From positions 71,890 through 135,889 of the forward strand of contig CAJARJ010000005.1 of the NCBI GenBank assembly GCA_903944345.1: a stretch of 64,000 bases of DNA, in the 5' to 3' direction. Numbering within the stretch: position 1 is the stretch's first letter; every line of letters starts with the position of its first letter. The position numbers and the translations under genes were made by a program. Shown piece after piece: positions 8,979 to 40,738 of the stretch. Origin of the DNA: Candidatus Omnitrophota bacterium. GTDB taxonomy: Bacteria > Omnitrophota > Gorgyraeia > Zapsychrales > Fredricksoniimonadaceae. The notes under the pieces were generated by a model. The model saw only the letters and a program-made list of their open reading frames with translations, did not search any database and was not told where the DNA came from.

Positions 8979-8986
8979 ATATTTTT

Positions 8987-11349: not shown

Positions 11350-11350
11350 T

Positions 11351-11929: not shown

Positions 11930-11946
11930 AAAGGGGAGAGAATTAA

Positions 11947-13699: not shown

Positions 13700-13713
13700 C
13701 AAGGAAAACGCTT

Positions 13714-14208
13714 ATGGCCACCAGACAACCGGAAAGACAATACCCCCGTTTTGATTCGAGTGCCAAGGTCTCTTTCAAAGTTTCTTACCAGTTCCGAACA
13801 GATGTCAATTTCAAGATTGCAGACCCGAAGCCCAAGGATCCAAACTCGAGTTTTATCGGGTTCTCCCAGAACATTTCGGTCAACGGGCTTTGTTTTGAAT
13901 CGCCCAAAGAACTGACCCCCGGAGACAAACTGTGGATCGAACTGCATCTGCCCAAACAGACCCATATGATTGCCATGGAAGGCGAGGTTCGCTGGTGCCG
14001 TCTGATGGCAGTCACAGCCAATGCCCCCAAACAATTCCTATCAGGAGTTCTAATCACCAAAGTGAATGGCAAACCAGTCCAGGACACCATTTACCAGGAC
14101 GAACAATACCATGTGGCCTGGAGCCAGCTGCTTAACGATGTCCTGGGAGAATTTGCCCGGATCTGCCGTGAAAAGAATCTACTTTCTGACCAGCCTTCCC
14201 AGGAATAA
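13714..14208 (+). CDS. PilZ domain protein (putative c-di-GMP receptor)
   Basis: N-terminal RxxxR (RQPERQYPR) and DxSxxG-like NISVNG motifs. Confidence 0.65.
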   Translation: MATRQPERQYPRFDSSAKVSFKVSYQFRTDVNFKIADPKPKDPNSSFIGFSQNISVNGLCFESPKELTPGDKLWIELHLPKQTHMIAMEGEVRWCRLMAVTANAPKQFLSGVLITKVNGKPVQDTIYQDEQYHVAWSQLLNDVLGEFARICREKNLLSDQPSQE

Positions 14209-14240
14209 ATAGCTCTCAACGCAACAGCTGCTAATAACAA

Positions 14241-14273
14241 GAAGCCCGGCTCTTTCGAACCGGGCTTCTTTAA
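14241..14273. terminator. Bidirectional rho-independent terminator between the convergent PilZ and OmpA-like genes
   Basis: Perfect 9-bp stem gaagcccgg/ccgggcttc around a 10-nt loop, followed by TTT on the plus strand and preceded by an A-run (a T-run on the minus strand). Confidence 0.6.
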
Positions 14274-14296
14274 CTGAATCTGACAAACGTATTATA

Positions 14297-15280: not shown

Positions 15281-15495
15281 AAAAACCTCTTTTTTGAAAT
15301 AGCGGGCCTGTGGCCCTTGGGGAGTATTTGTTTTAAAGATAGTAGCACATTTTTTCTCTTTTAAAACAGTTGTTTGAAATTTCGAACAGGCTTGACCGGC
15401 CCCGGTTAATGCTCCCCGAACAGGGCTAATTTTCCAGGAGGATAATACCCTTTTCTTGAATTGCACCCGATGCAGGTTTCTGTTATAAGATAAAT

Positions 15496-16026
15496 ATGGA
15501 TACTCATGACGCCTGGACACGCGCACTCAAGGAAACCAATATAATCCGTTCCCGGGTTTCTTCTTTGCAAACTTTTTCTGACACCCGGGTGCCCTACATT
15601 TTCCTTTCTCCGTCGAGTATTAACGAAGGCGATACTGTGGTCCGTTCCGGAGAAGTGACCATCCAGCAGCCAGGCCTTATTCTGCCCCCAAACATTCCCC
15701 AGCTACAGGGTTTTGACTTGCCGCAGGAGCAGGGTGAATCTGAAAACAGCACGTTAAGTTTTCTTTTCGTACGGGGCATTGTTCTTCCTTCGCTCAAATA
15801 CGACAATGTCACCAGCTCGCTGAATGTCTTCGAGGGGGATTTGCCCAAAGCGATCTCTTTTCATGCCAATCGCCTGGAAAGGGAAGAAGACGTCCTGACC
15901 GGACTATTGACGGGGCATGAAGACAACTGGCAATTTTCTCTTTTAATTTATATCTGTTCCCAGATCACCCGCAATGCGGAAAGGGACATCAAACGTCTTT
16001 TACAGGAATACCGGAGAAAATCATGA
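15496..16026 (+). CDS. Hypothetical protein (176 aa), translationally coupled to the M16 peptidase
   Basis: No recognisable motifs. Its stop overlaps the peptidase ATG (ATGA at 16023). Confidence 0.45.
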   Translation: MDTHDAWTRALKETNIIRSRVSSLQTFSDTRVPYIFLSPSSINEGDTVVRSGEVTIQQPGLILPPNIPQLQGFDLPQEQGESENSTLSFLFVRGIVLPSLKYDNVTSSLNVFEGDLPKAISFHANRLEREEDVLTGLLTGHEDNWQFSLLIYICSQITRNAERDIKRLLQEYRRKS

Positions 16027-18599
16027 AATTGCGTTTCTTTTCTGGGCTGTTTTTTGTTCTTTATGCCTGCATCAGCCCGGCAGCAGCAGAGGTCGTTTCC
16101 AAAAAATACATGCTCGAAAACGGCCTTACGGTCATCATCAACGAAATGCCCTCAACACAGCAGGCAGCGATATACGTCTGGATAAAAACAGGATCCGCCA
16201 ACGAAGGCAAATTTCAGAACAGCGGGATTACGCATTTTATCGAGCATATGCTTTTTAAAGGCACCGAAAAAAGGGGCACCGGAATTATCCCGCAGGAGGC
16301 ACGTTCCATCGGCGGCATCATCAATGCTTCGACCAGCTATGATTTTACCGTCTATACCCTGAACCTGCCCAGGGAAAATTTTTCCGCCGGGCTTGACCTG
16401 ATGGCCGATATGGTGACCAACCCCGTTTTTGATCCGGCCGAACTGGAAAAAGAACGCGAAGTCATTGTAAAAGAAATGCGCATGATCAATGACCGGCCTG
16501 AATGGCGCCTCGATAACCTTTTATACTCAACGGTCTATACCCGCCATCCCTACCGTTTTCCTATTATTGGCCATGAAACCATTTTCCGGAACCTGACCCG
16601 TGACAACCTGCTGGAATATTTTCATCTCTGGTATCTGCCGGGGAACATGATCCTGACGGTGTCGGGAAACTTCACCGCCGAGAGTATCATTGATGAAATA
16701 CGCGCCAAATTTTCCGGGAACGAAATAAAATCCATGGCTGTACGCGACACCGCCGAGGAACCTGTGCAGATTTTCCCCCGCAGCGCGGCGGCTTCTTATG
16801 CCACAGACCTGTACCGTTACAGTATTGCCTTCCAGGGGGTTCCTCTGCTTCATCCTGACCTTTATGCAATGGACGTCCTGGCCATGGCGCTGGGGGACGG
16901 GGAAAGCTCACGCCTTTACACCAGCCTTTACCAGCAAAAGAAACTGGTTACTTCTGTCAGTGCTTCCAACCTGACGCCTATTGACCGCGGCTTTTTTGAA
17001 ATATCCTGTCTGATGGACAGCGACCATTCAGAGGAAGTCCTGGCTCATGTCAAAAATACCATTGCCACTGTCCGGACAAACGGTCTGACCCGCCAGGAAC
17101 TGGAAACAGTCAAACGCAAACTTATGGTGCAAAATATTGCCTCCCGGCAAACCGCCGGAGGGATGGCCTACAAAACAGGTATTGAAACCGCTTTCACCGC
17201 AGACCACCTTTTTTCGGACAAATATCTGGATGGAATCCGGGCTGTCACCAACGCGGATATCAAACGGGTAGCCAGCCAATATCTGATAGACGCACGAATG
17301 ACCACTGTGTCTCTGTTCCCGGAAACGACGGCACCACTGGTGTCGGCAGAAACGCCTGCGAGCAGTGCGGCGGAGCGTTATCTGCTGGACAACGGACTGC
17401 GCCTGATCCTCAAGGAAGACCATGCTCTGCCTTTTATAACAGTACGCGTAGCCCTTAACGGTGGAACCCGTCAGGAAACAACCGATAAAACCGGTTCGGC
17501 GTTTCTGGCCGGAGCGCTCTGGGGCAGAGCCTTCAAGGGCAAAACCGTTACCCAATTGAGCAGCGAGACCGAGGCAAGGGGAGGGAGCATCTCCAGCTAC
17601 AGCGGAAAAAACAGCCTTATCCTGGCCATAGACTTTCTGTCGGAAGACACCGATCTTGTGCTGGGCTTGCTGGAAAACTTCCTTAAAAAGCCGTCTTTCC
17701 CGCAGGAAGAACTGGAGCTGTACAAAAAGCAGATGATAAGCTCCGTAAAATCCATCAAAGACAGCCCTTTGCGGACCGCAACCAAACTGGCCGTAGAAAC
17801 CCTGTTTGAAACACACCCTTTTCGTAACGACGGCCTCGGTGATGAAGCTGGTATTGCCAGGCTGTCCCGACAGGACGCGCTTGACTTCTTCGAAGATTTC
17901 TTCTCGGCAGACGGAATGGTTATTTCGATCTTCGGAGATATTAACAAAAAAGCTGTCCTTGACCGGCTGGGCAAAAGCCTTTCGGTTCTTCCTGAAAAAC
18001 GCAAAACCCTTGCCGTCTTTGACGAGCCGGCTCCGGAAACTCCGCGCATCAAGGAAATAGCCATGCCCAAAGAACAAGCCGTCCTGGTTCAGGCTTTCCG
18101 CGGCCCCTGGCTGGATTCAAAAGAACGTTTTGCCGGTGAAGTTGCCATGAACGTTCTGACCTCTTCCCTTGGAGGCAGGCTTTTCAAACGTATCCGCGAA
18201 GAAATGGGGCAGGCCTATACTCTGGGCGGCAGTTTCTCTCCCGGGGTAGACGCCGGAATGTTTCTGTTTTATGTCAACACCTCTAACGAATACCTGGAGA
18301 AAGTGCGTGCCATTCTAGAAGAGGAAATCCGCAGGCTGGCGGTCGAACCGCTCACGGTTCAGGAGCTGACCGACACAAAAAATTATCTGATCAGCCGGCA
18401 AGGCTCGGGCATGGAAACCCTCGCCGCGCAGGCCACAGCAAGCTCGATCAATGAGCTATTGGGCCTCGGTTTTGACCAGGAGGACAGTTATAATTCAAAT
18501 ATAATGGCGGTTTCGGCTGAAGATGTCCGCTCTCTTGCGGAGCGCTGGCTAAATCCGGAACACGCGGCTCTGGTTATTGTTCGCTCCCAGCAACCCTGA
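16023..18599 (+). CDS. Secreted M16-family zinc metallopeptidase (two tandem insulinase/pitrilysin modules)
   Basis: Signal peptide. Inverted zincin motif HFIEHMLFKGT...E. 858 aa with two M16 active/inactive domain pairs. Confidence 0.85.
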   Translation: MKLRFFSGLFFVLYACISPAAAEVVSKKYMLENGLTVIINEMPSTQQAAIYVWIKTGSANEGKFQNSGITHFIEHMLFKGTEKRGTGIIPQEARSIGGIINASTSYDFTVYTLNLPRENFSAGLDLMADMVTNPVFDPAELEKEREVIVKEMRMINDRPEWRLDNLLYSTVYTRHPYRFPIIGHETIFRNLTRDNLLEYFHLWYLPGNMILTVSGNFTAESIIDEIRAKFSGNEIKSMAVRDTAEEPVQIFPRSAAASYATDLYRYSIAFQGVPLLHPDLYAMDVLAMALGDGESSRLYTSLYQQKKLVTSVSASNLTPIDRGFFEISCLMDSDHSEEVLAHVKNTIATVRTNGLTRQELETVKRKLMVQNIASRQTAGGMAYKTGIETAFTADHLFSDKYLDGIRAVTNADIKRVASQYLIDARMTTVSLFPETTAPLVSAETPASSAAERYLLDNGLRLILKEDHALPFITVRVALNGGTRQETTDKTGSAFLAGALWGRAFKGKTVTQLSSETEARGGSISSYSGKNSLILAIDFLSEDTDLVLGLLENFLKKPSFPQEELELYKKQMISSVKSIKDSPLRTATKLAVETLFETHPFRNDGLGDEAGIARLSRQDALDFFEDFFSADGMVISIFGDINKKAVLDRLGKSLSVLPEKRKTLAVFDEPAPETPRIKEIAMPKEQAVLVQAFRGPWLDSKERFAGEVAMNVLTSSLGGRLFKRIREEMGQAYTLGGSFSPGVDAGMFLFYVNTSNEYLEKVRAILEEEIRRLAVEPLTVQELTDTKNYLISRQGSGMETLAAQATASSINELLGLGFDQEDSYNSNIMAVSAEDVRSLAERWLNPEHAALVIVRSQQP

Positions 18600-18644
18600 G
18601 ATTTTATGAAACCGTAATCCTGAAAAAAAACCGGAACAAAAATT

Positions 18645-20006
18645 ATGAATAAGAATATCCGTTTTGATCTGGAAGAACAGTTGCTCGAAAAACTGCGGGG
18701 TAAATTGCGCCTGTTACAGCCCCAGAGTGAAAGAGAAGACCTCGCGCTGACGGCTCTGGAAGACGTGCTTCTGACCGACAAGGCCAAAAAGTTTTCCGGA
18801 GAGTTTTCCTCACCGGAAGAAAAAAGCCGTTTTGTCCGCGAATTTCTGTCTTACGGGATCATCGAACAGTTTTTGTGCAACAGCAGTGTGGAAGACATCA
18901 TTATCCACGGGCAGAAACCGATCTATATTCATCATACCGACAGCGGTTTTGTTTCCACCAATGTCCAGTTTGAGTCGCTGCGTCAACTGGATATTTTCAT
19001 CAAAAAGCTGCTTGTCTTCGGGAATCGTGACGGATACAAGAACATCATTGACCTGGAACTTTTCAACCTCGGCGGACGTGCCAATATTATTGTTTCTCCG
19101 TTTGGCCCCCAGATCACAATCACAAAAGCCAAAACGGAACCTATCAGCATTCTGGATCTTGTGGAGAAAGGCGCGCTCTCCTATGAAGAAGCCGCACAAT
19201 TATGGATCTATCTGGACGGGCTTTCCGTGCGTCCGGCCAATATCCTTATTGCCGGAGGCCCCGGAACCGGAAAAACAACCCTTCTTAACGCCCTGTTCAG
19301 CTTTATTCCGGAAAAAGACCACCTGGTTATCATTGAAGACACACTGGAACTCAACACCGTCCTGATGGACTCGGTTTCCCGGCTTGAGAGCACCACCGAA
19401 CTGACCATTGGCGACCTTATTATCAACAGCCTGCGTATGCGTCCGGAACGGATTGTGGTGGGCGAGGTGCGCGGTGCAGAAGCCCGGGAAATGATCACGG
19501 CCATGAATGTCGGCAAATATTGTATGTGCACCATTCACGCGCTGACCAGCCGTGAAGCCATTATCCGCCTGCAAAACGAACCGATGAATATCCCCGAAAT
19601 GCTGGTCAACCTGATCGACGTTTTTGTGGTGCTCAAACGGTATCACGTCAATAACAAGGTTTTTCGCGTCATTGACGAGATTTCGGAAACAGGCGGGATG
19701 GAACAAAAGAAAATCCTTTTGTCCCCGGTGTACAAGTTCAATTATGAGCAGAACAAATCCATGCTCATGTCGCCAAGCACCATATACCGGGACCGTCTGG
19801 CCAGAGAATCGGGGCAAACCCCGCGCGACATTATTAACGAAACTTTACTGCGAGCTGTCGTTTTAAGAAAACTGCATGAACAGGGTATTCATACTCTGAC
19901 CGATACGACAGTGTTTTGCAGGGCTTTCCGCAAGGATGCAGCCGATGCCATGTCCCGCATAGGGCTTAACAGGCAAACGGTGTTAAAAGAAGTGGCCAAG
20001 AACTAA
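18645..20006 (+). CDS. CpaF/TadA/VirB11-type secretion ATPase (type II/IV secretion system protein family), orphan
   Basis: Walker A ILIAGGPGTGKTTLLNAL, Walker B HLVIIEDTLE, and Asp/His boxes. No tadB/tadC, pilin or secretin genes are adjacent. Confidence 0.8.
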   Translation: MNKNIRFDLEEQLLEKLRGKLRLLQPQSEREDLALTALEDVLLTDKAKKFSGEFSSPEEKSRFVREFLSYGIIEQFLCNSSVEDIIIHGQKPIYIHHTDSGFVSTNVQFESLRQLDIFIKKLLVFGNRDGYKNIIDLELFNLGGRANIIVSPFGPQITITKAKTEPISILDLVEKGALSYEEAAQLWIYLDGLSVRPANILIAGGPGTGKTTLLNALFSFIPEKDHLVIIEDTLELNTVLMDSVSRLESTTELTIGDLIINSLRMRPERIVVGEVRGAEAREMITAMNVGKYCMCTIHALTSREAIIRLQNEPMNIPEMLVNLIDVFVVLKRYHVNNKVFRVIDEISETGGMEQKKILLSPVYKFNYEQNKSMLMSPSTIYRDRLARESGQTPRDIINETLLRAVVLRKLHEQGIHTLTDTTVFCRAFRKDAADAMSRIGLNRQTVLKEVAKN

Positions 20007-20016
20007 AGCCGACGGC

Positions 20017-21213
20017 TTAGACCAGTTTCTGATACAACTCCAGAGTCTGTCGGGCAATTTTGTCCCAGGTGAAATGTTCTATAACCCGCTTGTGTCCGGC
20101 TTGTCCCATTTGCAGGCGCAAAGCAGGGTCGGCCATCAAAGCATCAATCTGGAAAGCCAGATCACGCGAGAAACCTTCAGGATCCACCGGCTCGGCCACC
20201 AGGTCGTTCTTCATCTGCACCGGAACCAGCCGTCCGGTAACCCCGTCAGCCACCGCTTCTTTTATACCGCCCACGGCGGAGGCGACCACCGGAATTTCAC
20301 AGGCCATGGCTTCGAGGTTGATAATGCCAAAAGGTTCATAAACTGAAGGACAACAGAACAGCGAAGCGTGCGAAAACAGCGCCCGTTTGACTTCCAGCGG
20401 AACCATGTCTTTCACCCAGACCACGTTGGGATGGATGCTGCGGGCTTCCTGAACCCCGGCTTCCATTTCCGCGGCGATCTCGGGAGTGTCCGGAGACCCG
20501 GCAGAAAGAACGATCTGCAGATCCGATTTCAGGTAACGGATGGCGCGCACCAGATGAATAATCCCTTTCTGACGGGTGATGCGTCCCAGAAAAAGCAGAT
20601 ACGGCTTTTCGGGGTTGATCCCATAGGGAGTCAGCCGCCAGGGTTCGTTCACTTTGTAAACCTGGGTCAGATCGATACCATTAGGAATAACGGTAATCTT
20701 GTCGGGAGAAATATTAAAAAGAGAAAGAATATCTTTTTTAGTGTCATGTGAGACCGCAATAACAGCATCTGCCATTTCAATAGCTGTTTTCTCGACCCAG
20801 CAGCTGAAATCGTAGCCACCGGCCAGTTGTTCTCTTTTCCAGGGGCGTAAAGGCTCCAGGGAGTGGACGGTCAATACCAGGGGGATACCGTAATTGAGTT
20901 TGGCAATAATACCGGCCATATGCGTGTACCAAGTGTGGACATGCACAATGTCGGCATCTATTCCCGCCTTGTTAAAGTCCAGTCCGCGCTGAAGGGCATC
21001 AAACACACGGGCCAGCTTTTGCGGAGAGGCCGAGAAGTCCTGTTTGGCAAACCCGCGGACGCTCAGGTTGCCGGATTGAAGGTTCTGATCGCCAAAACAC
21101 TGCACCTGAACCTGGCAAAGAGCAGATAAAGCCCGGCTGAGGTCGTCAACATGCACTCCGGCTCCGCCATAGATATAGGGAGGGTATTCGTTGGTCATCA
21201 GTTGTATTTTCAT
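20017..21213 (-). CDS. GT4-family glycosyltransferase (GlgA-like, actinobacterial-type glycogen synthase family)
   Basis: N-terminus MKIQLMTNEYPPYIYGGAGVHVDDLSRAL and GT-B fold motifs (E..FG, GGI.E) are typical of GT4 retaining transferases. Convergent with the ATPase gene. Confidence 0.7.
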   Translation of the reverse strand: MKIQLMTNEYPPYIYGGAGVHVDDLSRALSALCQVQVQCFGDQNLQSGNLSVRGFAKQDFSASPQKLARVFDALQRGLDFNKAGIDADIVHVHTWYTHMAGIIAKLNYGIPLVLTVHSLEPLRPWKREQLAGGYDFSCWVEKTAIEMADAVIAVSHDTKKDILSLFNISPDKITVIPNGIDLTQVYKVNEPWRLTPYGINPEKPYLLFLGRITRQKGIIHLVRAIRYLKSDLQIVLSAGSPDTPEIAAEMEAGVQEARSIHPNVVWVKDMVPLEVKRALFSHASLFCCPSVYEPFGIINLEAMACEIPVVASAVGGIKEAVADGVTGRLVPVQMKNDLVAEPVDPEGFSRDLAFQIDALMADPALRLQMGQAGHKRVIEHFTWDKIARQTLELYQKLV

Positions 21214-21485
21214 GGCAAGGATTATATACCATCGGTGTGTTCTGCCTATATGAATTTATCTATTTTTCGCGTTCCCGGCGGGGGGAGGGGGGAAAAAGAG
21301 GGTTGCATAGCTTGTTGGTTGTGGTAGATTGGGGGAAGGTTTGATGATAAGGATGCAAGAGGCCTTTTTTGACATTTATTGACATTTGAATTCAGGATTG
21401 CTTTGGTTAACTAGGTTTGAGAAATTATGTTGCGGGGTCTCATTTCCTTTTAGAATCATCGCGTTTTATTACGCAGGGAAAAACT

Positions 21486-23969
21486 ATGAGTAAAAAAATA
21501 AGTCGAGCAATGATTCCCAACTTGCTCTCTGCGATTGCTTGGGCAGTAGGAGTTGCATCTTTCATTTACCCGCTCTGGTTTAAACCAATGTTAGTTCTTA
21601 CTGATCAGTTTCTATATGATAGGTTTGACTTTGTATTCGGAAGTTTTGCTGTGATGTGTTGCGGATGGGTTGTTGTGTTTAACGCCTTGCCATTGGCCTG
21701 GTTTGAATATAAGCAGACTTTAACCAATGATGTGAAGGGTATTGGTTATGGTGGATGGATTGTTATAACTACATGTGTCGCCCTGTTTGCCACAGTCTCG
21801 GATATTTCTCAAGGGCACTTTTCGGCCTATTTCTTACTTTGGATGATCTTAAATATTTTTGCAGGCATGGCTTGCTGGATTGCTGTTATTGCCTTTCTTC
21901 ATAAGAACAACAGTAGGACTGAGAACAAGAAAGAAAAGAAGGATTTGCTGGAGCGAGGGGTTATTTTAACAAGCCTCAAGCAGTGCATTGATAGTGCGCC
22001 AGTTGATGAAGGATCTTTTGTGATTGGTCTGTACGGCGCTTGGGGTTCAGGAAAAAGTTTTGTTACCGATCTATTAAAGCACCAATATGAAAAACAAGAA
22101 GACGTGATTTTCCTACAGTTTACTGCTAGTGCATTTAGTAGCGAGAGCGCAATAATTCGCGGACTCTATGAAACAATTGAGAATGGATTTCCGTCGAACT
22201 CTGCTTTTCTTAAAAGAGCTCTGTGTAATTATGGTCGAAGCTTGGCTGAGTGCTTTAAGGCGCCGAGTATTGGCAGCTTCTTCGGCAGTGCCGGTTCTTT
22301 TGATCAACATAAGAATGAATTGGCAAAGGAGTTGCGGTTGGCTGATGATAAAAGAATTGTTGTCGTGGTTGATGATATTGATCGTCTTGAAGAATCTGAA
22401 GCACGAGCAGTATTGCGAGCTGTCAGGAATAATTTAGATCTTCCTAGGATTGTTTTTATTGTTAGCTGTGACCCTGACAAGGTTTTAAGTTTTTATCAAG
22501 GGAATGCCGGGCAGTTGGAAAAGATTTTAAATTGTTCGCTTCATTTGCCGATGCCAACAGTCGCTCAAATTCTTGATTATCTTCGCGACCCAGTTGTGAA
22601 AGTAGTCACCGCAGCAACGGGATCGGAAGATATAGCTAAGGGTACTATGGATTTATTCTCGGATGTGCTTGCAAAGGGAGCTTTTGAACGAGTTTTAACA
22701 CTGCGATGGGCAAAGTTGTTGGTAAATCAGCTTGAAACGTATCCGAAAGATATTATGAGAGAGGTTCGGCCGCTCGACATCATTTTATTAGAAGCGCTGA
22801 GATTGTTTTCTCCTGTGGCCTGGTCTGATATAAGCATGAACGAATCCCTCTACCTTGGAACAAGGCAGGTTTTTAAATTTGGTGTGGAGGCAAAGGAAAG
22901 AAGAAAGGAGGAATTGGCAGAGCTTAAGCAACATCTTACAAATTTGGTTGGAGGCCACCACATGAATGCATGCTTTGCTCTCATGGAAGAGCTTTTTCCT
23001 GAGGTTTTTGCTGCATTAAAATATGATCCGATTAGTAGGTTTGATGAAGAGAGGGCACGTGTTGAAAAACGAGTTGCTAACTCTGAGTGTTTTGAAAAAT
23101 ATTTCTTTAAGGCCGTTTTGCCGAACATGGTGAGCGACGGCCATGTAGAGAAGCTGTATAAAAGATGGAATAGCCTTGGGGTAGATGAAGCTGTAGAGGA
23201 TATGGTAACTATTTTTAAAGAGAGTCCATTAAACAAGGAATTGTTTTTTCAGGCTCTTTTGAGAAATTGTAGCATTGCATCGTCCTCGACAGCTGAAAGC
23301 ATGGTTTTGGCGTTATCTCGTTTAGGCTTAAGATGGCATGATGGATCTAGGGAGCAGTTTGGGCAGGCAAAGAATTTGTTTTTTGATCTTCTGGAGAAGA
23401 GGTGCTTGGATTCGGATGTGGCCAAGATTTATATGCGTTGCCTTCGGGAAGGAACTTCCTTGGACTTTACTGCTGCATGTATTGCAGAGCTCGCTATTCA
23501 GCCAAGGTATAAAAAGACAGCGGGTTTGGTAGATTTCAATGAAGCTAAGAAGTTTGGTGTCGATTTACTTACAAGAATCTTTGTTAAGGAAGGTGTCGAT
23601 GTCTTTGTGCAATACCCCGATAGTGCAGTAAGTCTTTTGCGATATTGGGCTAATGAGTTTTATTCTGTGGCAGGTGGCAAGAAGGCAGAGGTGAGCAATT
23701 ATATTTGGAGTAGAATTAACAGTTGTCCTCAGAATTTGTTAATGATTGCTAATTATCTTAGCGGCCCCGGAGATCATGGTTATTATATTTCGAATATGGC
23801 GATTGAATTTCTTGATATAGATGTTGCCGTGGTGAATATCGAAGGCTTAATTACCCAAGGAGTTTATTTGGGAAAAGAGTTGGAGAAGATTTCTTCGTTT
23901 AGAGATGCTTGTAAGCAATATCTTGAGAAAAAAGATATTGTGAGCCCTAAAAATAATAATGAGAAATGA
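21486..23969 (+). CDS. Membrane-anchored KAP-family P-loop NTPase
   Basis: Four predicted N-terminal transmembrane helices, then Walker A GLYGAWGSGKSF (KAP signature GxWGxGKS) and Walker B RIVVVVDDIDRL (the hhhhDDhDR KAP hallmark), then about 500 aa of alpha-helical C-terminal region. The track start 21417 is a TTG. I prefer the ATG at 21486 with an AGGGA ribosome-binding site. GC is visibly lower than in flanking genes. Confidence 0.75.
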   Translation: MSKKISRAMIPNLLSAIAWAVGVASFIYPLWFKPMLVLTDQFLYDRFDFVFGSFAVMCCGWVVVFNALPLAWFEYKQTLTNDVKGIGYGGWIVITTCVALFATVSDISQGHFSAYFLLWMILNIFAGMACWIAVIAFLHKNNSRTENKKEKKDLLERGVILTSLKQCIDSAPVDEGSFVIGLYGAWGSGKSFVTDLLKHQYEKQEDVIFLQFTASAFSSESAIIRGLYETIENGFPSNSAFLKRALCNYGRSLAECFKAPSIGSFFGSAGSFDQHKNELAKELRLADDKRIVVVVDDIDRLEESEARAVLRAVRNNLDLPRIVFIVSCDPDKVLSFYQGNAGQLEKILNCSLHLPMPTVAQILDYLRDPVVKVVTAATGSEDIAKGTMDLFSDVLAKGAFERVLTLRWAKLLVNQLETYPKDIMREVRPLDIILLEALRLFSPVAWSDISMNESLYLGTRQVFKFGVEAKERRKEELAELKQHLTNLVGGHHMNACFALMEELFPEVFAALKYDPISRFDEERARVEKRVANSECFEKYFFKAVLPNMVSDGHVEKLYKRWNSLGVDEAVEDMVTIFKESPLNKELFFQALLRNCSIASSSTAESMVLALSRLGLRWHDGSREQFGQAKNLFFDLLEKRCLDSDVAKIYMRCLREGTSLDFTAACIAELAIQPRYKKTAGLVDFNEAKKFGVDLLTRIFVKEGVDVFVQYPDSAVSLLRYWANEFYSVAGGKKAEVSNYIWSRINSCPQNLLMIANYLSGPGDHGYYISNMAIEFLDIDVAVVNIEGLITQGVYLGKELEKISSFRDACKQYLEKKDIVSPKNNNEK

Positions 23970-24054
23970 CTTTTTGTGTATATTTTGGGGAAACACTAAA
24001 CACTCGGAGTTCTTTGATATTTGATATAATTTTAGCTATGCTCCTCATTTGAAA

Positions 24055-24924
24055 ATGAATACACTCCAAACAAATTCAGTTTTACCTTTGGTTTCACAGC
24101 TTCGTTCTTCCTACCCAGCACTCCAGCAAGTTTTACAGGCTCCTTTTCAACTTAATCTTATAATTGACACTAATGTAATTCTCGGAGACATGCTTTGGAT
24201 GTTGAAGAAAAGGAGAAATGCAAATGCCAAAACAGAAATTCTTGAGTTATTGCAAAACAGAACTCTCTTTGCTTGTGCTCCTACGCTTCTAAAGAAAGAA
24301 ATAAAAAGACACATCCCGGTAATAGCCAAAAAAGAGGGCTTGGATGAGGGGGCTTTCTTATGCCTCTGGAAAGAGTATGAGAGATACATAGAATTTCTTC
24401 CGTATAAGACCTCCCAAAAATTAAGAAAGCAGTGTGAAAGAGATCCTAACGATGCCCCATTCTTAGCATTACAAATGTCACATCGATATCCAATCCATTC
24501 GAAAGATAAAGATATGGTCGCGATGGGTGGAAAAGTAATAAATGCACGATTGATTACGGATTTGAAGGAATATTCTAGAAACGCGGAGATATGTTATTCC
24601 TTTGAAATTTCTGGTATTGGTATCGGGATTTTAACGATATCGACAGCGCGGGCAATCTTTGTCTTGCTCTCGAAGATTCCCAAACAAATTTATGCTGGCG
24701 CAGCCATAGGTTTATTTGTTTTGCTTCTTCATCCGAAAAGTAGAGAACAAATTCTGAAATGTATTGAAAGTAATATGAAAGGAATATCCGCTGCTCTAGA
24801 AGAAGCCGCCAATATGATTTCTCCGAGTCTGGAAAAGTATAATCAAAGTAGAAATATCGTAGAAGATAAGAAAGAGCTTATAATAGGCCAGCTCGCTGGA
24901 CAAGGCCTGCAGTTTCGTCGGTAA
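24055..24924 (+). CDS. PIN-domain protein with two C-terminal transmembrane helices (putative membrane-anchored RNase effector)
   Basis: PIN acidic motifs are present: LIIDTNVILGD (Asp1), a mid Glu, RDPNDAPFLALQ (the D-x-N-D motif) and SKDKDM. Two hydrophobic helices follow (ISGIGIGILTISTARAIFVLL, AGAAIGLFVLLL). It lies 79 bp downstream of the KAP NTPase on the same strand. The track start 24049 is a TTG, and the ATG is at 24055. Confidence 0.6.
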   Translation: MNTLQTNSVLPLVSQLRSSYPALQQVLQAPFQLNLIIDTNVILGDMLWMLKKRRNANAKTEILELLQNRTLFACAPTLLKKEIKRHIPVIAKKEGLDEGAFLCLWKEYERYIEFLPYKTSQKLRKQCERDPNDAPFLALQMSHRYPIHSKDKDMVAMGGKVINARLITDLKEYSRNAEICYSFEISGIGIGILTISTARAIFVLLSKIPKQIYAGAAIGLFVLLLHPKSREQILKCIESNMKGISAALEEAANMISPSLEKYNQSRNIVEDKKELIIGQLAGQGLQFRR

Positions 24925-25023
24925 ACTCAAGAAATAGGGTCTTTCTGTGCCATTCCAAGAACGATCTTAAGAGAGCTACTGTAGCTTTCTTTCGGTTAGA
25001 ACAGAAATAAGTCTAAATAACTG

Positions 25024-25058
25024 GTGACACACAGAGTTGTTTTATAACATTCTTTCGA
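25024..25058. repeat. Degenerate partial left end of the MITE-like element
   Basis: gtgacacacaGAGttgttttataacat matches the consensus left end gtgacacacacaattgtttcttaacat. Confidence 0.45.
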
Positions 25059-25093
25059 ACCAAGCGGAATGTCAGGGGACTGTATGATAATTC

Positions 25094-25200
25094 GTGACAC
25101 ACACAATTGTTTCTTAACATCTATTGACGTTTACGCCAAACAAATTCTCTGTTGGCATATACGCAAGTCATTACCAGTCTCAAAAACTATATGTGTCCTT
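25094..25200. repeat. MITE-like element copy A (about 107 bp, right terminal inverted repeat degenerate)
   Basis: Left end gtgacacacacaattgtttcttaacatctattgacgtttacgcc.. The right end ..ctcaaaaactatatgtgtcct aligns with ctcaaaattctgtgtgtcac of copies B and C. It lies in the brnT upstream region. Confidence 0.55.
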
Positions 25201-25233
25201 GACATTGTGTAACTTGGTATATACACTTGAATC

Positions 25234-25521
25234 ATGGTGATAATTGATCGACCAATTGAGTTCCAATGGGATAAGGGCAACAAGGGAAAAAATCTTGTTA
25301 AGCATAAAGTAGCCGATCAGGAGTGTGAAGAAGTTTTTTTTGATCAGAAAAAAAAGATATTCAAAGATGCTTTACATTCCGACAATGAAGAACGATTGGT
25401 CTTATTAGGACAAACCAAGAATGGACGCGTCCTTTTTATTGTTTTTACAGTTCGTTCCGGGAGAATTCGGGTTATTTCAGCCCGGGATTTAAACCGAAAA
25501 GAGAGACATTTATATGAATAA
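25234..25521 (+). CDS. brnT: BrnT-family type II toxin (DUF497 ribonuclease toxin)
   Basis: 95 aa with the signature FQWDKGNKGKNLVKHKV (the FEWDxxKxxxNxxKHG motif). Confidence 0.75.
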   Translation: MVIIDRPIEFQWDKGNKGKNLVKHKVADQECEEVFFDQKKKIFKDALHSDNEERLVLLGQTKNGRVLFIVFTVRSGRIRVISARDLNRKERHLYE

Positions 25522-25780
25522 AAAAACTGATTTGCCAAAATTCAAGAATGAAGATGCGGAAAGAGATTACTGGGCAAAGTTTGATCTCTCCGATCATTTT
25601 AGCTCAAAGGATTTTTTGAGCGTTTCTTTGCCAAATCTAAAGCCGACATCGTCTGCTATTTCTGTACGCGTTCCCAATTATTTACTCGTTCGGTTGAAAG
25701 AAAGAGCCCATGAACTCAATATTCCTTACCAAACTTTAATGAAGCAATATATTGCGAACGGAATATTTGCGCATCATTAG
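25514..25780 (+). CDS. brnA: BrnA-family antitoxin (CopG/RHH-like)
   Basis: 88 aa, overlapping the brnT stop by 8 nt, with the toxin-then-antitoxin order typical of BrnTA. The C-terminal RHH-like region is ..VRVPNYLLVRLKERAHELNIPYQTLMKQYI. Confidence 0.7.
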   Translation: MNKKTDLPKFKNEDAERDYWAKFDLSDHFSSKDFLSVSLPNLKPTSSAISVRVPNYLLVRLKERAHELNIPYQTLMKQYIANGIFAHH

Positions 25781-25795
25781 TGTAGGAATTAAAAT

Positions 25796-25905
25796 AAACA
25801 GTGACACACACAATTGTTTCTTAACATCTATTAACATTTACGCCAGACGACTTTTCTGTTGGTATGTACGTAAGCATCAACCAATCTCAAAATTCTGTGT
25901 GTCAC
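25796..25905. repeat. MITE-like element copy B (about 110 bp) with imperfect terminal inverted repeats
   Basis: aaacaGTGACACACAcAATTgtttcttaacatctattaacatttacgccagacgacttttctgttggtatgtacgtaagcatcaaccaatctcaaAATTcTGTGTGTCACgg. It starts 16 bp after the brnA stop. Confidence 0.65.
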
Positions 25906-26037
25906 GGATTTGCAACACGAGGCGTTGCAGAATGTGAACCCGAATGATGTCTACGCTGGAAAGATGAAAAAGCTATAATCTTAACCAATGAAACAATAAC
26001 TGGCTGAAGATATACAAATTAATGGGGAAATATCAGA

Positions 26038-27294
26038 ATGACGGAAGCGATTTCACAACTGCCAAGGCTATTTCTTCTCATAGGCTTGTTGTTGGCTGCA
26101 GCGCATTTCTTCGGGTACATCTTTTATAAATGCAATCTTCCTAAAGTTATCGGTGAGATCTTCGGCGGATTCCTGTTGGGAAAGTCCGTTTTGGGGTATT
26201 TCAGCCCTGATATCTATCTATGGTTGTTTGATTCATTTAAGGAAGAGGGGGGTCTGCTTTCCGGATTTTACTGGCTAGGCTTGATCTTGCTTATGTTTAT
26301 TTCCGGATTTGAAATTCAGAAATTGTTCGATCGCGATGATAAAAGAATTATTGCCGTCATAGTATTGGGCTCTACCGTTATTCCTTTCGCCGCCGGTTTT
26401 AGCGCTCCTGTATGCTTTGGTGTGGCTCCGTTAATGGGAATCAAGGGGAATGTATTGGCGTTACAACTTGTTTTCGGCACTACCGTCGCCATCACTGCCA
26501 TTCCGGTTATTTCAAGAATATTTCTCGATTTGAATATTATGCGTACCCGGTTCGCTAAAATTGTATTGACCACAGCCATAGTACATGATGTGGTCCTCTG
26601 GTGTGTGCTGGCCATTGCTACCGGTTTGGTAAGTACTCGGGCCGCCGCACCGTTACAGGTGGCTAGCACAGTGTTGATGACCGTTGTCTTTATTGGATTG
26701 TCGCTGACGGTGATGCCGAGGTTAGTCAAATTTTGCAATACTTTAAAATCGAATTTGCTTATTAAATCTTCCGTGTTCGGTTATGCAATGGTCCTTTGTT
26801 TTATTTTTGTGGCTCTGGCAAGCGTTTTGCACGTTAATATTGTCTTTGGGGCGTTTCTGGCTGGCGTAGTCATCGGCTTAATGCCTGAGGAAAAAATTGA
26901 AAAGGGAAGGGCGGATATTAAAAAGATTGCGCTGGCATTCTTTATTCCGCTGTATTTTGCCATCGTAGGAGCGCGAATAGATTTAATTCATTATTTTGAT
27001 CTGAAGCTATTTCTGGGGGTTCTGTTTTTTGCTATCTTGAGCGCTACTGCAGGCACTTTGCTGGCGGCAAGGGTGGTCACCCGTGACTGGTTATCCGGTA
27101 TCAACCTTGCAGTGGCGATGAATACCCGAGGGGCGGTGGGCATTGTGGTGGCGACCATTGCTTTGGATTCTGGTATTATTAATGAACCTTTCTTTGTTGT
27201 TCTAGTTTCAATTGCAGTAGTGACAACACTTTTGACTGGTTTTTGGTTGAGATATGTATTATCAAGAGGCTGGGAGCTTTTTAAGATCGAGTAA
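26038..27294 (+). CDS. Cation:proton antiporter (CPA1/CPA2-type Na+/H+ or K+/H+ exchanger family)
   Basis: 418 aa with about 12 transmembrane helices and a glycine-rich N-terminal helix (VIGEIFGGFLLGKSVLG) typical of Kef/NapA-type exchangers. Confidence 0.75.
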   Translation: MTEAISQLPRLFLLIGLLLAAAHFFGYIFYKCNLPKVIGEIFGGFLLGKSVLGYFSPDIYLWLFDSFKEEGGLLSGFYWLGLILLMFISGFEIQKLFDRDDKRIIAVIVLGSTVIPFAAGFSAPVCFGVAPLMGIKGNVLALQLVFGTTVAITAIPVISRIFLDLNIMRTRFAKIVLTTAIVHDVVLWCVLAIATGLVSTRAAAPLQVASTVLMTVVFIGLSLTVMPRLVKFCNTLKSNLLIKSSVFGYAMVLCFIFVALASVLHVNIVFGAFLAGVVIGLMPEEKIEKGRADIKKIALAFFIPLYFAIVGARIDLIHYFDLKLFLGVLFFAILSATAGTLLAARVVTRDWLSGINLAVAMNTRGAVGIVVATIALDSGIINEPFFVVLVSIAVVTTLLTGFWLRYVLSRGWELFKIE

Positions 27295-27298
27295 GGAT

Positions 27299-27408
27299 AA
27301 ACAGTGACACACACAATTGTTTCTTAACATCTATTAACATTTACGTCAGACGACTTTTCTTTTGGCATGTACGTAAGTATCAACCAATCTCAAAATTCTG
27401 TGTGTCAC
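27299..27408. repeat. MITE-like element copy C (about 110 bp)
   Basis: Near-identical to copy B with about 6 substitutions. It starts 5 bp after the antiporter stop and ends about 25 bp before the next gene. Confidence 0.65.
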
Positions 27409-27433
27409 GGATTGTTAAAACGAAGGAAATTTG

Positions 27434-28204
27434 ATGCGAAATCTGTTTAAAATTGATCCAAATTGGATGTTTTTGAATGTTTTTGTGTTGATGACCGGTA
27501 CGATATTAGGAGCTTATAGCCCCTCTGCTTTCCTTTGGGCGTTTGGGATGTGTTGTTTGGCGGCCTTCTTATTAGGCAAAACAAGAAAAGTATCTCAGTT
27601 ATTCTTGCCATCGCTCGCAATATTTCTCGGACTCTATTTCTGGGGTCTGATAGGGACATTCTTAGTGCATCAATATTACTTATTTGGGATCAGAGTTATT
27701 TTTTTAATTCCTGTTTTGTTGGCAATCTTTTTTCCTACCAAATTCTTCATAGCTTTTGTTATTCTAGAAGCCCTCTTTGATTTGACTTTTGATATAGTTA
27801 ACATTTCGAAATATGCGTTGTGGTCGCCGCTCCATCAATCTTTAGCCGTTGCGATTGCCTTTCGTAGCACCGGGATTATTTTAGCAATTCGATACATTAT
27901 AGTTGATTGGCAGCAGAGTCCGAAGGGTTCAGAATCGAGAAGCGCGTTTGTAACAAAATATTGGTTCAAGCCGAAACTTGGGAAATGGGGTGTTGGCATG
28001 CCCATTACTTGGGAAGGCTGGGTCGCTTCCATATTGTTTTCTACTGCAGTTATTATTTGGGCTTGGATTCTGGGTTATTTTAATGAAAACTTTAAACCGG
28101 TCTCATTTCCTCAAAGCCTGATGTTCATTTCGGGGGGCATCTTCATCTCTCTTGCTTTTTGTTATTTTGTTAAAGACAAAGTTGAAGGCGGCGTTGGATT
28201 CTAA
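27434..28204 (+). CDS. Hypothetical polytopic membrane protein
   Basis: 257 aa with about 7 hydrophobic helices and no recognisable motifs. AAGGA ribosome-binding site 8 nt upstream of the ATG at 27434. The track start 27431 is a TTG. Confidence 0.5.
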   Translation: MRNLFKIDPNWMFLNVFVLMTGTILGAYSPSAFLWAFGMCCLAAFLLGKTRKVSQLFLPSLAIFLGLYFWGLIGTFLVHQYYLFGIRVIFLIPVLLAIFFPTKFFIAFVILEALFDLTFDIVNISKYALWSPLHQSLAVAIAFRSTGIILAIRYIIVDWQQSPKGSESRSAFVTKYWFKPKLGKWGVGMPITWEGWVASILFSTAVIIWAWILGYFNENFKPVSFPQSLMFISGGIFISLAFCYFVKDKVEGGVGF

Positions 28205-28216
28205 ATAATTCTCGTC

Positions 28217-28277
28217 AATAAACAGTGACCAATAAACAGTGACACACACAATTGTTTCTTAACATCCATTAACATTC
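28217..28277. repeat. Truncated MITE-like copy D (left end only) with a 14-bp tandem duplication
   Basis: aataaacagtgacc aataaacagtgacacacacaattgtttcttaacatccattaacatt, after which similarity to copies B and C ends. Confidence 0.5.
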
Positions 28278-28324
28278 GTATCATCTCAGAAATATTCCCA
28301 TTGAAATTTTTCTTTGTTACTGAT

Positions 28325-28355
28325 ATATTCATATATTCGATTTAACATATATTAA
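28325..28355 (+). promoter_or_regulatory. Putative ArsR operator/promoter region
   Basis: An AT-rich dyad (ttcatatattcgatttaacatatattaa) lies immediately upstream of the arsR ribosome-binding site. ArsR/SmtB repressors bind imperfect dyads overlapping their own promoter. Confidence 0.25.
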
Positions 28356-28362
28356 GGCTGCC

Positions 28363-28659
28363 ATGAAAAATTATGTATTGTTGTTTAAAGCGCTCTCTGA
28401 TGAGACGCGATTAAAGATCATGATCCTTCTTTCGGAAAAAGAACTTTGCGTTTGCAAAATAGAAGCCGCGCTGGATTCTTCACAAGCAAAGGTCTCACGA
28501 CATCTGACTGTTTTGAGAAATGCGGGGCTGGTAGCTTCTCGAAGAGATGGCCAGTGGATTTATTACTCAATAGTAAAACCCAAAAGCTGCCTGGAAGAGA
28601 AAATATTCTCATGTTTCAAGGATTGTTTACGTACAAAGGATCTTCCGTATCTTTTATGA
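28363..28659 (+). CDS. arsR: ArsR/SmtB family metalloregulator (arsenite-responsive repressor)
   Basis: HTH region plus the As(III)-binding ELCVCKI motif. Confidence 0.8.
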   Translation: MKNYVLLFKALSDETRLKIMILLSEKELCVCKIEAALDSSQAKVSRHLTVLRNAGLVASRRDGQWIYYSIVKPKSCLEEKIFSCFKDCLRTKDLPYLL

Positions 28660-28672
28660 AAGGACTGTCGCA

Positions 28673-29782
28673 ATGGAAACAGAAAAGAAAGAAATCGATC
28701 AGAATAGAATGACCGGCATAAGTTTCTTTGAACGAAATCTGACGCTTTGGGTCATATTATGCATGATTTCTGGCATCCTTATCGGAAAGTTTCTTCCCGC
28801 CATTCCTAATGTTCTGGCCAGATTTGAATACGCCAAAGTTTCCATCCCTATCGCGGTTCTGATATGGTTCATGATCTATCCCATGATGATGAAAGTCGAT
28901 TTTACCAGCATCAAAAATGTCAGTAAAAACCCCAAGGGACTTTATGTCACCTGGATTGCTAACTGGTTAATCAAGCCATTTACCATGTTCGCTATTGCCG
29001 CGTTCTTCTTTTACGTTGTATTTAAATCGTTGATTCCAGCCGAATTGGCCAAACAGTATCTGGCTGGTGCCGTTTTGCTGGGGGCGGCGCCTTGCACAGC
29101 TATGGTCTTTGTCTGGAGCCATCTGACCAGAGGCAATGCCGCTTACACCGTGGTCCAGGTGGCTACTAATGACCTGATCATCCTTATCGCCTTCACCCCG
29201 ATTGTCGCTTTCTTGCTGGGCATGGGGGGGATCAGCATTCCCTGGGATACTCTCTTTTTATCAGTCTTTCTTTTTGTGGTTATTCCGCTAGTTGGGGGCA
29301 TACTGACACGAAACATCGTGATCAAAAGTAAAGGGGAGGAGTATTTCACGAACTCCTTTATTCCCAGGTTCAATAACGTGACGATTGGCGGCTTGCTGTT
29401 AACATTGATACTCATATTTTCCTTTCAGGGAGAGGTAATTCTTAATAATCCCCTGCATATCGCGTTGATCGCGGTGCCACTGATTATTCAAACATTTTTA
29501 ATCTTCTTCATATCCTATGACGCTTGCAGAAGGTTGAAATTATCGCATGATATTTCCGCACCCGCGGGCATGATCGGCGCTTCCAACTTTTTTGAACTCT
29601 CGGTGGCCGTAGCCATCACCCTGTTCGGTGCGTCATCTCCGGCTGTTCTGGCCACAATTGTGGGTGTATTGGTCGAAGTCCCTGTGATGCTTTTTCTGGT
29701 CAGAATTGCTAACCGGACAAAGTGCTGGTTTCCTGCTGATAAAAACCATCTTGATAAAGGAATATCATGTTCAAACGTATAG
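28673..29782 (+). CDS. acr3: ACR3-family arsenite efflux permease
   Basis: 369 aa with 10 transmembrane helices. N-terminus ..ISFFERNLTLWVILCMISGILIG.. and overall hydropathy match the Acr3/ArsB-Acr3 family. Confidence 0.8.
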   Translation: METEKKEIDQNRMTGISFFERNLTLWVILCMISGILIGKFLPAIPNVLARFEYAKVSIPIAVLIWFMIYPMMMKVDFTSIKNVSKNPKGLYVTWIANWLIKPFTMFAIAAFFFYVVFKSLIPAELAKQYLAGAVLLGAAPCTAMVFVWSHLTRGNAAYTVVQVATNDLIILIAFTPIVAFLLGMGGISIPWDTLFLSVFLFVVIPLVGGILTRNIVIKSKGEEYFTNSFIPRFNNVTIGGLLLTLILIFSFQGEVILNNPLHIALIAVPLIIQTFLIFFISYDACRRLKLSHDISAPAGMIGASNFFELSVAVAITLFGASSPAVLATIVGVLVEVPVMLFLVRIANRTKCWFPADKNHLDKGISCSNV

Positions 29783-32165: not shown

Positions 32166-32206
32166 AAAGAAAGCCCTTCATATATATGAAGGGCTTTCTT
32201 GTTTTT
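32166..32206. terminator. Strong bidirectional rho-independent terminator (17-bp perfect palindrome)
   Basis: aaagaaagcccttcatat/atatgaagggctttctt followed by ttgttttt on the plus strand and ttttgac on the minus strand. It ends both the small unit and nrdB. Confidence 0.7.
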
Positions 32207-40700: not shown

Positions 40701-40738
40701 TACATATTATGTAAACTAGAAGGAGAGAAAAAGAACCT

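Follow-up and report, generated by a model that had tools for sequence, protein, structure and literature searches.

Five short repeats, all in the same orientation, lie in a low-GC defence island within the 64-kb stretch of DNA analysed here (the window), and they most resemble ordinary bacterial miniature transposons. We favour, with modest confidence, the interpretation that they belong to a lineage-specific MITE-like family that has accumulated in the island and has been partly exapted. The genome surveyed amounts to ∼78 kb of contiguous sequence (the 64-kb window plus extensions of 8.5 and 5.9 kb), and proteins of the island were annotated with Pfam and PADLOC. The features, in order along the window, are as follows:

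21260 to 28900, no strand assigned: island, a low-GC, strain-variable accessory and defence region that holds all of the copies
25016 to 25082, plus strand: copy E, the left ∼68 nt of an E-type element, AATAACTG + GTGACACACAGAGTTGTTTTATAACATT...GGAATGTCAG
25086 to 25211, plus strand: copy A, a full-length B-type element, left terminal inverted repeat (TIR) at 25094–25103, nhmmer E=3.7e-37
25199 to 25227, plus strand: predicted sigma-70-like promoter, TTGACA-17-TACACT, 10 of 12 positions matched
25793 to 25912, plus strand: copy B, a complete B-type element, left TIR GTGACACACA at 25801–25810, right TIR TGTGTGTCAC at 25896–25905
27296 to 27415, plus strand: copy C, a complete B-type element, left TIR at 27304–27313, right TIR at 27399–27408
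28216 to 28277, plus strand: copy D, a B-type left end only (28231–28277), profile positions 2–46, E=1.2e-10

All five copies listed in the first-pass annotation are real, on the plus strand and between 25016 and 28277, and a profile built from copies A, B and C found no sixth copy in the 64 kb. The 25-mer left end occurs four times, compared with none expected in shuffled sequences, and GTGACACACA occurs seven times versus 2.2 expected. Copies B (GTGAC...GTCAC, 25801–25905) and C (27304–27408) are 105 nt each and are 96.6% identical over 117 nt, or 94% over 127 nt, in line with the ∼95% first estimated. Copy A shares 86% identity with B over 93 nt; its core spans 25094–25200 and its right terminus has decayed to TATATGTGTCC (25190–25200). 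The copy at 25024, originally taken for a truncated 105-nt element, is instead the left part of a second subfamily. This copy E lacks a right terminus and adjoins copy A, shares 91% identity over 68 nt with the complete E-type copies of the related strain L040, and matches positions 10–78 of the E-type profile (E=1.5e-19). The series ends, ahead of the arsR promoter, with copy D, which consists of a 46-nt left end (98% identical); before it, 14 bp are duplicated exactly in tandem (CAATAAACAGTGAC, 28216–28229 and 28230–28243). The duplication had been read as a sign of recent activity or of slippage; since it takes in flanking bases, it resembles replication slippage and not recent transposition.

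The repeats are AT-rich, strictly intergenic and mostly in a 3' UTR position. The conserved unit of copy B begins 12 nt past the brnA stop codon, while copy C follows the stop codon of the antiporter gene by 1 nt and stops ∼20 nt ahead of the start of the membrane-protein gene. Three gene modules have a repeat 1–13 nt after the stop codon, but the earlier description of copies beginning 5–20 bp past a stop codon is wrong for copy E, which is found 92–99 nt after that of PIN_2. All truncated copies (4 of 4) retain the left end, and all orientable copies (9 of 9) point the same way as the genes.

The TIR is perfect over 10 of 10 bp, extends to 16–20 bp when lengthened, and includes within the left end the palindrome ACAATTGT. 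The internal palindromic core described initially is part of a larger symmetry, as the B-type element is imperfectly palindromic over its full length. Conservation reaches past the inverted termini, with ATAA three bases outside the left terminus in all copies (ATAA-NNN) and GGAT on the right. The B-type (105 nt) and E-type (78–82 nt when complete) subfamilies have in common these flanks and ∼20-bp termini (TAA-NNN-GTGACACACA-SAR-TTGTTT), with unrelated interiors. That only the termini are conserved across the two subfamilies points to recognition of the ends by a protein rather than to a function of the RNA interior. In L040, TA...TA brackets all three complete copies, lying exactly 4 nt out from GTGAC/GTCAC. 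The right side is not TA in the window, where the flanks are TA...TT for copy B (TA at 25795–25796; GGAT and then TT after the right TIR) and TA...TG for copy C (GGAT and then TG). The TA belongs to an extended inverted symmetry (TAA...TTA) and therefore may not be a target duplication. Correia and RUP elements use TA as a target, and TA is a possible target here. One open frame crosses the element in the coding test, and a profile of repeat translations had no match among 5.8 billion proteins, a search in which the known copies themselves also went unmatched and which is therefore uninformative about further copies. The repeats carry the hallmarks of a non-autonomous TIR element, as first proposed: they are small, AT-rich and intergenic, with 10–20-bp inverted termini and no homologous ORF. 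Their size and termini fall inside the limits for prokaryotic MITEs (<500 bp; TIRs of ∼4–30 bp). Chimeric and tandem arrangements are also seen (E-left with A, and B-left with E) together with partial copies, as in the MITEs of pneumococci and Coxiella (PMC10969869).

The island encodes a PifA-like KAP NTPase, PIN_2, brnTA, an Na+/H+ exchanger, a 257-aa membrane protein and possibly arsR, and has a GC content of 36–44% versus ∼48–55% in its flanks. Homology with the related strains L040, L041 and L042 stops at window position ∼21259–21263, and the GT4–T2SSE flank of the repeat-bearing related strains is 87.5–88.3% identical to the window at the DNA level. Both subfamilies are present in L040 at the same chromosomal hotspot, beside a glycogen-synthase-like gene. 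The genes between the L040 repeats are wholly different, comprising a 220-aa protein, an NsnB-like ATPase, a TPR protein and others where the window has KAP/PIN/brnTA/antiporter, such that the repeats are the only sequence common to two otherwise unrelated gene sets at this locus. There are five copies in the window, four in L040 (one also on L041) and one in L042, where a solo end stands at the proximal boundary of the array, and gene contexts differ. Recurrence at one hotspot between different genes rules out a simple local segmental duplication. An rve-type transposase remnant beside one L040 copy indicates that mobile DNA accumulates in the island. Across at least 15 contigs from the window's population the order of the genes does not vary, giving no sign of current activity, and when ArsR, GT4, BrnT, the response regulator and the 858-aa protein were looked up by exact match, the sequences retrieved came from the same strain and kept this gene order. 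Antiporter homologues at other loci (82% and 74% identical) are without repeats and in different contexts, with homology confined to the ORF; for the 82%-identical protein, in another MAG, it ends at the stop codon. Synteny differs around more distant GT4 orthologues (68–72% identical), and those loci contain no repeats.

Further copies were found in the related strains but not outside the one hotspot in the contiguous genome, the remaining ∼71 kb of which contain none. Exact-pattern scans with GTGACACACASARTTGTTT of 185,579 GTDB genomes, JGI metagenomes and IMG/VR returned only chance matches of 19–22 nt, and the same scans recovered no IS ends related to the repeat termini. There was no match to either subfamily by blastn against PLSDB plasmids, nothing relevant in Rfam (by E-value on 20–32 kb and with gathering thresholds on the whole window), and no tRNA in a tRNA search. 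As noted at first, the window ORFs include no transposase, and a cognate IS with matching ends is absent from the related-strain loci as well. No orthologous site lacking the element was recovered.

Hairpins are predicted for both subfamilies. The B-type RNA forms a single long hairpin on the minus strand, that is, the strand complementary to the genes, with a minimum free energy of −33 kcal/mol (z −3.2 to −4.6) versus −24 kcal/mol (z −1.7) in sense. Over all B-type folds the range is −24 to −34 kcal/mol, with sense-strand z-scores of −1.0 to −1.7, and the strand preference corresponds to 6–7 G.U pairs versus one C.A mismatch. The E-type RNA is more stable (−33 to −40 kcal/mol; z −5 to −8) and folds equally well on both strands, and the B-type copy of L040 also folds well on both, the minus strand being better by only 2.5 kcal/mol. 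As single-stranded DNA, with DNA parameters, the terminal 10-bp stem alone forms (z∼−1). Selection for a minus-strand structure was suggested by the G.U asymmetry (7:1 in B and 6:1 in C) and was not sustained, given the E-type and L040 folds, the absence of compensatory changes or covariation among the four B-type copies, and changes in copy A that are not consistently one-sided in the register of B. The minus strand would be the leading-strand template if a dif site at 40690 marks the terminus.

These folds bear on a different explanation, in which the repeat is a non-mobile module between genes that segmental duplication and gene conversion have propagated inside the island and that is retained as an RNA 3'-UTR hairpin, stabilizing or processing the upstream cistron or insulating its neighbours. 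Strict restriction to the hotspot in one orientation, location directly after stop codons, the strong E-type hairpin on the sense strand and the closer identity of B and C than of copies compared between strains (92%) are all consistent with it. We nevertheless consider it unlikely. The genes between the copies are unrelated and differ in GC content and origin, so duplication of whole segments cannot have spread the repeat, and conservation of the termini alone, the weak B-type sense fold and the lack of both covariation and a terminator-like U tract also argue against it. The terminator role first envisaged finds no support, as there is no intrinsic-terminator signature and no stem-loop with U tract overlapping any copy.

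As initially described, copy A lies within the brnT promoter, where its decayed right end supplies the −35 box. The predicted promoter, TTGACA-17-TACACT, is the best promoter-like site between 24000 and 28800; it begins where the right end of copy A has diverged, and that end is the source of the first −35 bases, and with the brnT ATG at 25234 the transcript is predicted to be leaderless. From this sequence match, we propose that an end of copy A has been recycled into a leaderless brnTA promoter. Promoter donation has been reported for Correia elements. Were the inverted termini instead operator half-sites for an island regulator, such as BrnA or an ArsR-type repressor, the perfect conservation of the GTGACACACA / TGTGTGTCAC dyad, the palindrome in the left end and the overlap of one copy with the brnT promoter would be accounted for. 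Such an operator is, in our estimation, highly improbable, as 85 bp separate the half-sites, most copies are at gene 3' ends and not at promoters, copies are present in a strain without brnTA in the 8.4 kb recovered, and partial copies retain one end only.

Comparison with the Correia, RUP, ERIC and QMITE2 families of bacterial MITEs shows the same size (80–105 nt), 10–20-bp TIRs, lack of coding capacity, AT-rich composition, intergenic and often 3' UTR location (as for QMITE2), and long hairpins predicted in transcripts (PMC10969869). Size and sequence subfamilies with only the termini in common are typical of type II MITEs, and partial copies or copies beside and into each other are found for pneumococcal BOX, RUP and SPRITE (PMC10969869). 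In contrast to the former four families, to which they have no sequence similarity, the repeats described here are without a known parent IS and their target duplication is only putative. Classical MITEs occur in either orientation and number tens to hundreds of dispersed copies, whereas the present copies are all co-oriented in a single hotspot of ∼7 kb. Strict clustering and a single orientation are left unexplained by the MITE-like interpretation, and uniform orientation is by itself unexpected for a cut-and-paste element with symmetric ends.

REPIN/REP sequences mobilized by RAYTs are comparable in forming ∼100-nt inverted doublets with one long hairpin that are intergenic and lineage-specific. 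However, REPINs are dispersed in hundreds of copies, and the termini here (GTGACACACA and AT-rich) are not GC-rich palindromes and have no GTAG tetranucleotide. With no Y1-transposase (RAYT) among the window ORFs, this assignment was rejected.

The organization of the array also resembles a cassette-type system of gene capture, in which the repeats would be recombination sites comparable to attC sites or to the dif modules of Xer. Every gene module would end, on its 3' side, in a hairpin site of ∼80–105 nt with GTGACACACA termini, and defence and accessory modules would be exchanged at one fixed hotspot, close to the terminus of replication, by a recombinase whose gene lies elsewhere, in an undescribed system that is functionally analogous to attC or pdif modules and unrelated to them in sequence. 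Integrons and CALINs likewise have one imperfect palindrome of ∼60–140 nt 3' of each co-oriented, promoter-poor module, with toxin–antitoxin and defence cargo (as in sedentary integrons), strain-variable content at a fixed locus and, as for the B-type, a preferred fold on the strand complementary to the genes. A CALIN is by definition an attC cluster without an integrase. The presence of one repeat per gene module, the repeats being all that two unrelated gene sets share, and the location of left-end-only copies at the distal end of the array (copy D) and at its proximal boundary in L042 would also be accounted for. A classical attC identity was rejected, since a regular-expression scan of both strands from 24900 to 28400 gave 0 matches to the R''/R' core pair (RYYYAAC...GTTRRRY). 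No recognizable pattern of extrahelical bases is seen. Dif modules (Xer/IMEX) were likewise dismissed: the best dif-consensus match in 24950–28300 is 21/28, which is background and in coding sequence, and the true dif site (27/28) is at 40690–40717. The ORFs and called genes of the ∼78 kb include no tyrosine or serine recombinase and no integrase such as IntI. Furthermore, several adjacent genes have no site between them (KAP and PIN_2, and the four-gene block of L040), the E-type shows no strand preference, the four B-type copies are without compensatory changes, the array is invariant in its population, and the closest antiporter homologue elsewhere has no repeat. We assign the cassette explanation a low probability, with co-orientation, restriction to the hotspot and the left-end-only fragments in its favour.

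Accessory genes bracketed by near-identical, co-oriented copies are also characteristic of MITE-flanked units such as those of Acinetobacter class 1 integrons, and a bracketed unit of this type could move as a composite or be swapped by homologous recombination (PMC10969869). The difference is that there is no sign that any bracketed unit has moved. No repeats accompany the closest antiporter homologue elsewhere.

Returning to the MITE-like family, we propose that a transposase encoded elsewhere in the genome would bind the termini common to both subfamilies and that copies were inserted, presumably by transposition, at TA in AT-rich intergenic DNA. They would have built up, partly beside and into one another, in the variable island next to the glycogen-synthase-like gene. 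Resident copies may be transcribed together with the co-oriented genes and form hairpins in the RNA, and copy A would have been exapted for the −35 box of brnTA. The copies probably also provide portable homology for the gain and loss of genes in the island.

If this is correct, the repeats represent a newly recognized MITE-like family from an uncultured lineage, probably Omnitrophota; they would be a useful strain marker, would explain assembly breaks at the locus, and would add a small example of the end of a mobile element reused in a toxin–antitoxin promoter. The more interesting point is the organization, with repeats as the sole common sequence, all in one direction and with left-end fragments. 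If it reflects directed gene exchange, it would represent a new route of defence-island turnover.

Five copies of one repeat lie in the same orientation between positions 25016 and 28277 of the window. They fall into a 105-nt subfamily (B-type) and a second subfamily of ∼80 nt (E-type):

from 25016, + strand: copy E, left part of an E-type element, abutting copy A
25094-25200, + strand: copy A, B-type, 86% identical to copy B over 93 nt, right end diverged to TATATGTGTCC
25801-25905 (termini), + strand: copy B, B-type, 105 nt between the ends GTGAC...GTCAC
27304-27408 (termini), + strand: copy C, B-type, 105 nt between the ends GTGAC...GTCAC
28231-28277, + strand: copy D, left end only of a B-type element (46 nt), with an exact tandem duplication of 14 bp before it

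Over 117 nt, copies B and C share 96.6% identity. In the window the 25-nt left end is found four times versus zero in shuffles and the 10-mer terminus seven times versus 2.2 expected; these five copies are also the only matches in 64 kb to a profile HMM derived from A, B and C. The repeats are therefore real and far beyond chance, in line with the repeat family that the first-pass annotation had proposed. Population contigs extending 8.5 kb rightward and 5.9 kb leftward yielded no further copies by profile. At least 15 population contigs have the same gene order, and the repeats are points at which several assemblies break. A sense ORF (NSDTHNCFLTSINIY..., frame 25752-25937, with equivalents in A and C) stays open across the entire B-type element; it is most likely due to chance, since no similar protein was found among 5.8 billion database sequences.

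Inverted ends are present as first described, but the conserved unit extends further, to ATAA on the left and GGAT on the right. ATAA precedes GTGAC by three bases in all copies (two in the solo end of the related-strain contig L042), and GGAT follows GTCAC in the complete copies, the right end of A being decayed. Over 10 bp the termini form perfect inverted repeats, with symmetry reaching 16–20 bp. The resulting end pattern is (TA)A-NNN-GTGACACACA, and a parent IS would be predicted to have ends that begin in the same way.

The repeats recur in related strains. A GT4 glycogen-synthase-like gene (20017-21213, − strand) adjoins the low-GC island in which the window copies lie; its orthologues in these strains have 95–96% protein identity, and the contigs L040, L041 and L042 are 87.5–88.3% identical to the window in DNA sequence through GT4 and T2SSE. 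Homology of all three contigs to the window ends at window ∼21259-21263, directly after GATATGAATTTAT, and beyond it the strains represented by the window, L040 and L042 have unrelated DNA. In window orientation, the L040 island comprises:

220-aa gene
complete 78-nt E-type element, GTGACACACAGAGTTGTTTTATGACATT...AAAACAATTCTGTGTGTCAC
5332-5454, − strand: C-terminal remnant (∼40 aa) of an rve-family (IS3/IS481-like) transposase (rve_2, E=2e-5), directly after the E-type copy
four genes, one encoding an NsnB-like ATPase
left part of a B-type element
complete 82-nt E-type copy
complete 105-nt B-type copy, 92% identical to window copy B

Since the repeats are the sole sequence common to the window and L040 islands, their recurrence between unrelated genes rules out a plain segmental duplication, which the first-pass annotation had kept as the alternative. 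The L040 copies also revise the reading of the repeat at 25024, previously taken for a truncated 105-nt copy: copy E matches the left 68 nt of the E-type with 91% identity and is thus a truncated member of that subfamily. In L042 a solo end, ATAAAC-GTGACACACAGAAT, lies 18 nt inside the variable region. B-type and E-type elements have termini of ∼20 bp and flanks in common, and their interiors differ. All three complete L040 copies are situated between TA...TA exactly 4 nt outside GTGAC/GTCAC; the corresponding window flanks are TA...TT for B and TA...TG for C. Both L040 E-type copies are followed by a second short repeat, TCATAGAGTAGTTAGGGGAGACCTnTCCCTTTCTC (∼5470-5503 and ∼583-617), and a tRNA-like fragment, at which ARAGORN makes no call, is located near L040 520-590.

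Prokaryotic MITEs are <500 bp in total length with TIRs of 4–30 bp, are AT-rich, intergenic and often in 3′ UTRs, give transcripts that form hairpins, include families whose members have just their termini in common, and occur as partial copies and as copies clustered or inserted into one another (PMC10969869). The B- and E-type elements resemble them in size, TIRs, AT-rich intergenic site, predicted hairpins, terminus-only families and partial or clustered copies. We consider it somewhat probable that the repeats constitute a lineage-specific MITE-like family that would be mobilised in trans, would probably target TA in AT-rich DNA, and would have accumulated in the low-GC island. Transposition, duplication of TA, read-through transcription and any role in recombination are each matters that we infer. 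In line with the first-pass annotation, which had stated that the window has no cognate transposase, no transposase or recombinase family was detected among the window's large ORFs or the genes called on the flanking contigs. No sequence relatives were found in GTDB, JGI metagenomes, IMG/VR or PLSDB. The architecture of the family is ordinary for bacterial MITEs.

All window copies lie inside a segment (21260-28900, its right boundary near arsR) of 36–44% GC, versus about 48–55% in the flanks, that encodes a PifA-like KAP NTPase, a PIN_2 protein, BrnT/BrnA, a Na+/H+ exchanger and a 257-aa membrane protein. Taken together with the different gene set of L040, this identifies the locus beside GT4 as a strain-variable hotspot of defence and accessory genes; the window's version has the KAP NTPase and PIN_2 protein, that of L040 the NsnB-like ATPase. 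A G-rich tract, GGCGGGGGGAGGGGGGAAAAAGAGGG (21276-21300), is found just inside the variable part, in the divergent GT4/KAP NTPase intergenic region. The exchanger gene (26065-27294) is 83% identical in DNA sequence to positions 10040-11269 of L025, a contig of another MAG from Omnitrophota, GCA_037131245.1. The match stops precisely with the stop codon, and none of the neighbouring genes are shared, which suggests that the exchanger gene moved on its own by horizontal transfer; the L025 locus is without the repeat. Judging by the names of the nearest homologues, the window itself probably comes from Candidatus Omnitrophota. L025 has intergenic repeats of its own (∼50–100 nt; 6054-6131 and 6302-6349 versus 20264-20366), unrelated to the B-/E-type family, and a long series of small genes in one orientation (2777-21269) that includes PIN, DUF6788/NTP_transf_8 and AAA_14/DUF4143.

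Further along the window, where a 469-aa gene converges with the gene for the ribonucleotide-reductase small subunit, the two are separated by a perfect 34-nt palindrome (32167-32200), probably a bidirectional terminator. On the + strand at 40690-40717, ACTTCCTATAATACATATTATGTAAACT agrees with the 28-bp dif (XerC/XerD) consensus in 27 of 28 positions; the window has no second site of this kind. The genes on either side point towards it, those at 36.7–40.7 kb being on the + strand and those at 40.7–49.9 kb on the − strand. This near-perfect site and the gene convergence indicate that the window probably spans the replication terminus of the chromosome, at 12.4 kb from copy D.

The region's best promoter-like site, TTGACA-17-TACACT from 25199 (10 of 12 positions), supports the earlier placement of one copy in the brnT promoter, as the diverged right end of A supplies the first bases of the predicted TTGACA box. 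The brnT ATG (25234) lies 7 nt past the −10 box and no ribosome-binding site is visible, and a leaderless brnTA mRNA is therefore predicted. The suggestion that the copies may act as terminators found no support, no intrinsic-terminator signature being found at them.

With RNA parameters, the B-type minus strand forms a single long predicted hairpin (MFE −32.7 to −33.7 kcal/mol, z −3.2 to −4.6), versus −18 to −24 kcal/mol (z −1.0 to −1.7) for the plus (sense) strand, because 6–7 minus-strand G·U pairs become A·C mismatches on the sense strand. With DNA parameters, the terminal stem alone is stable in the B-type. E-type elements fold equally well on both strands (RNA, −33 to −40 kcal/mol, z −5 to −8). 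Given this, the lack of compensatory changes among four B-type copies, and changes in copy A that are not consistently one-sided in the register of B, the B-type asymmetry carries little weight. A purely local RNA module would suit the strong hairpin that the E-type is predicted to form in its sense strand, and also the restriction of the repeats to the hotspot (five copies in a 3.3-kb stretch out of about 78 kb), yet such a module leaves unexplained both the terminus-only conservation between subfamilies and the spread between unrelated genes, and we regard it as unlikely.

Besides this restriction, all nine orientable copies are co-oriented with the genes, and the left end is what remains in all four fragments (window copies D and E, the partial B-type copy of L040 and the L042 solo end). 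None of these three features is predicted by a cut-and-paste element with symmetric ends. All three would fit cassette or recombination sites, a reading that we regard as quite improbable. Each known version tested fails on a defining feature: the RYYYAAC...GTTRRRY pair of integron attC is missing on both strands, and no IntI was found; the repeats lack the dif-like site of dif modules; and neither the GTAG-type REP nor the RAYT gene of REP/RAYT was found. For the MITE-like family, part of the arrangement could be explained if copies in the strongly folding orientation were selected against inside operons, or if nested insertions were followed by deletions between right ends in direct repeat. 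The interest of the family rests on its cassette-like organisation and not on the element itself.
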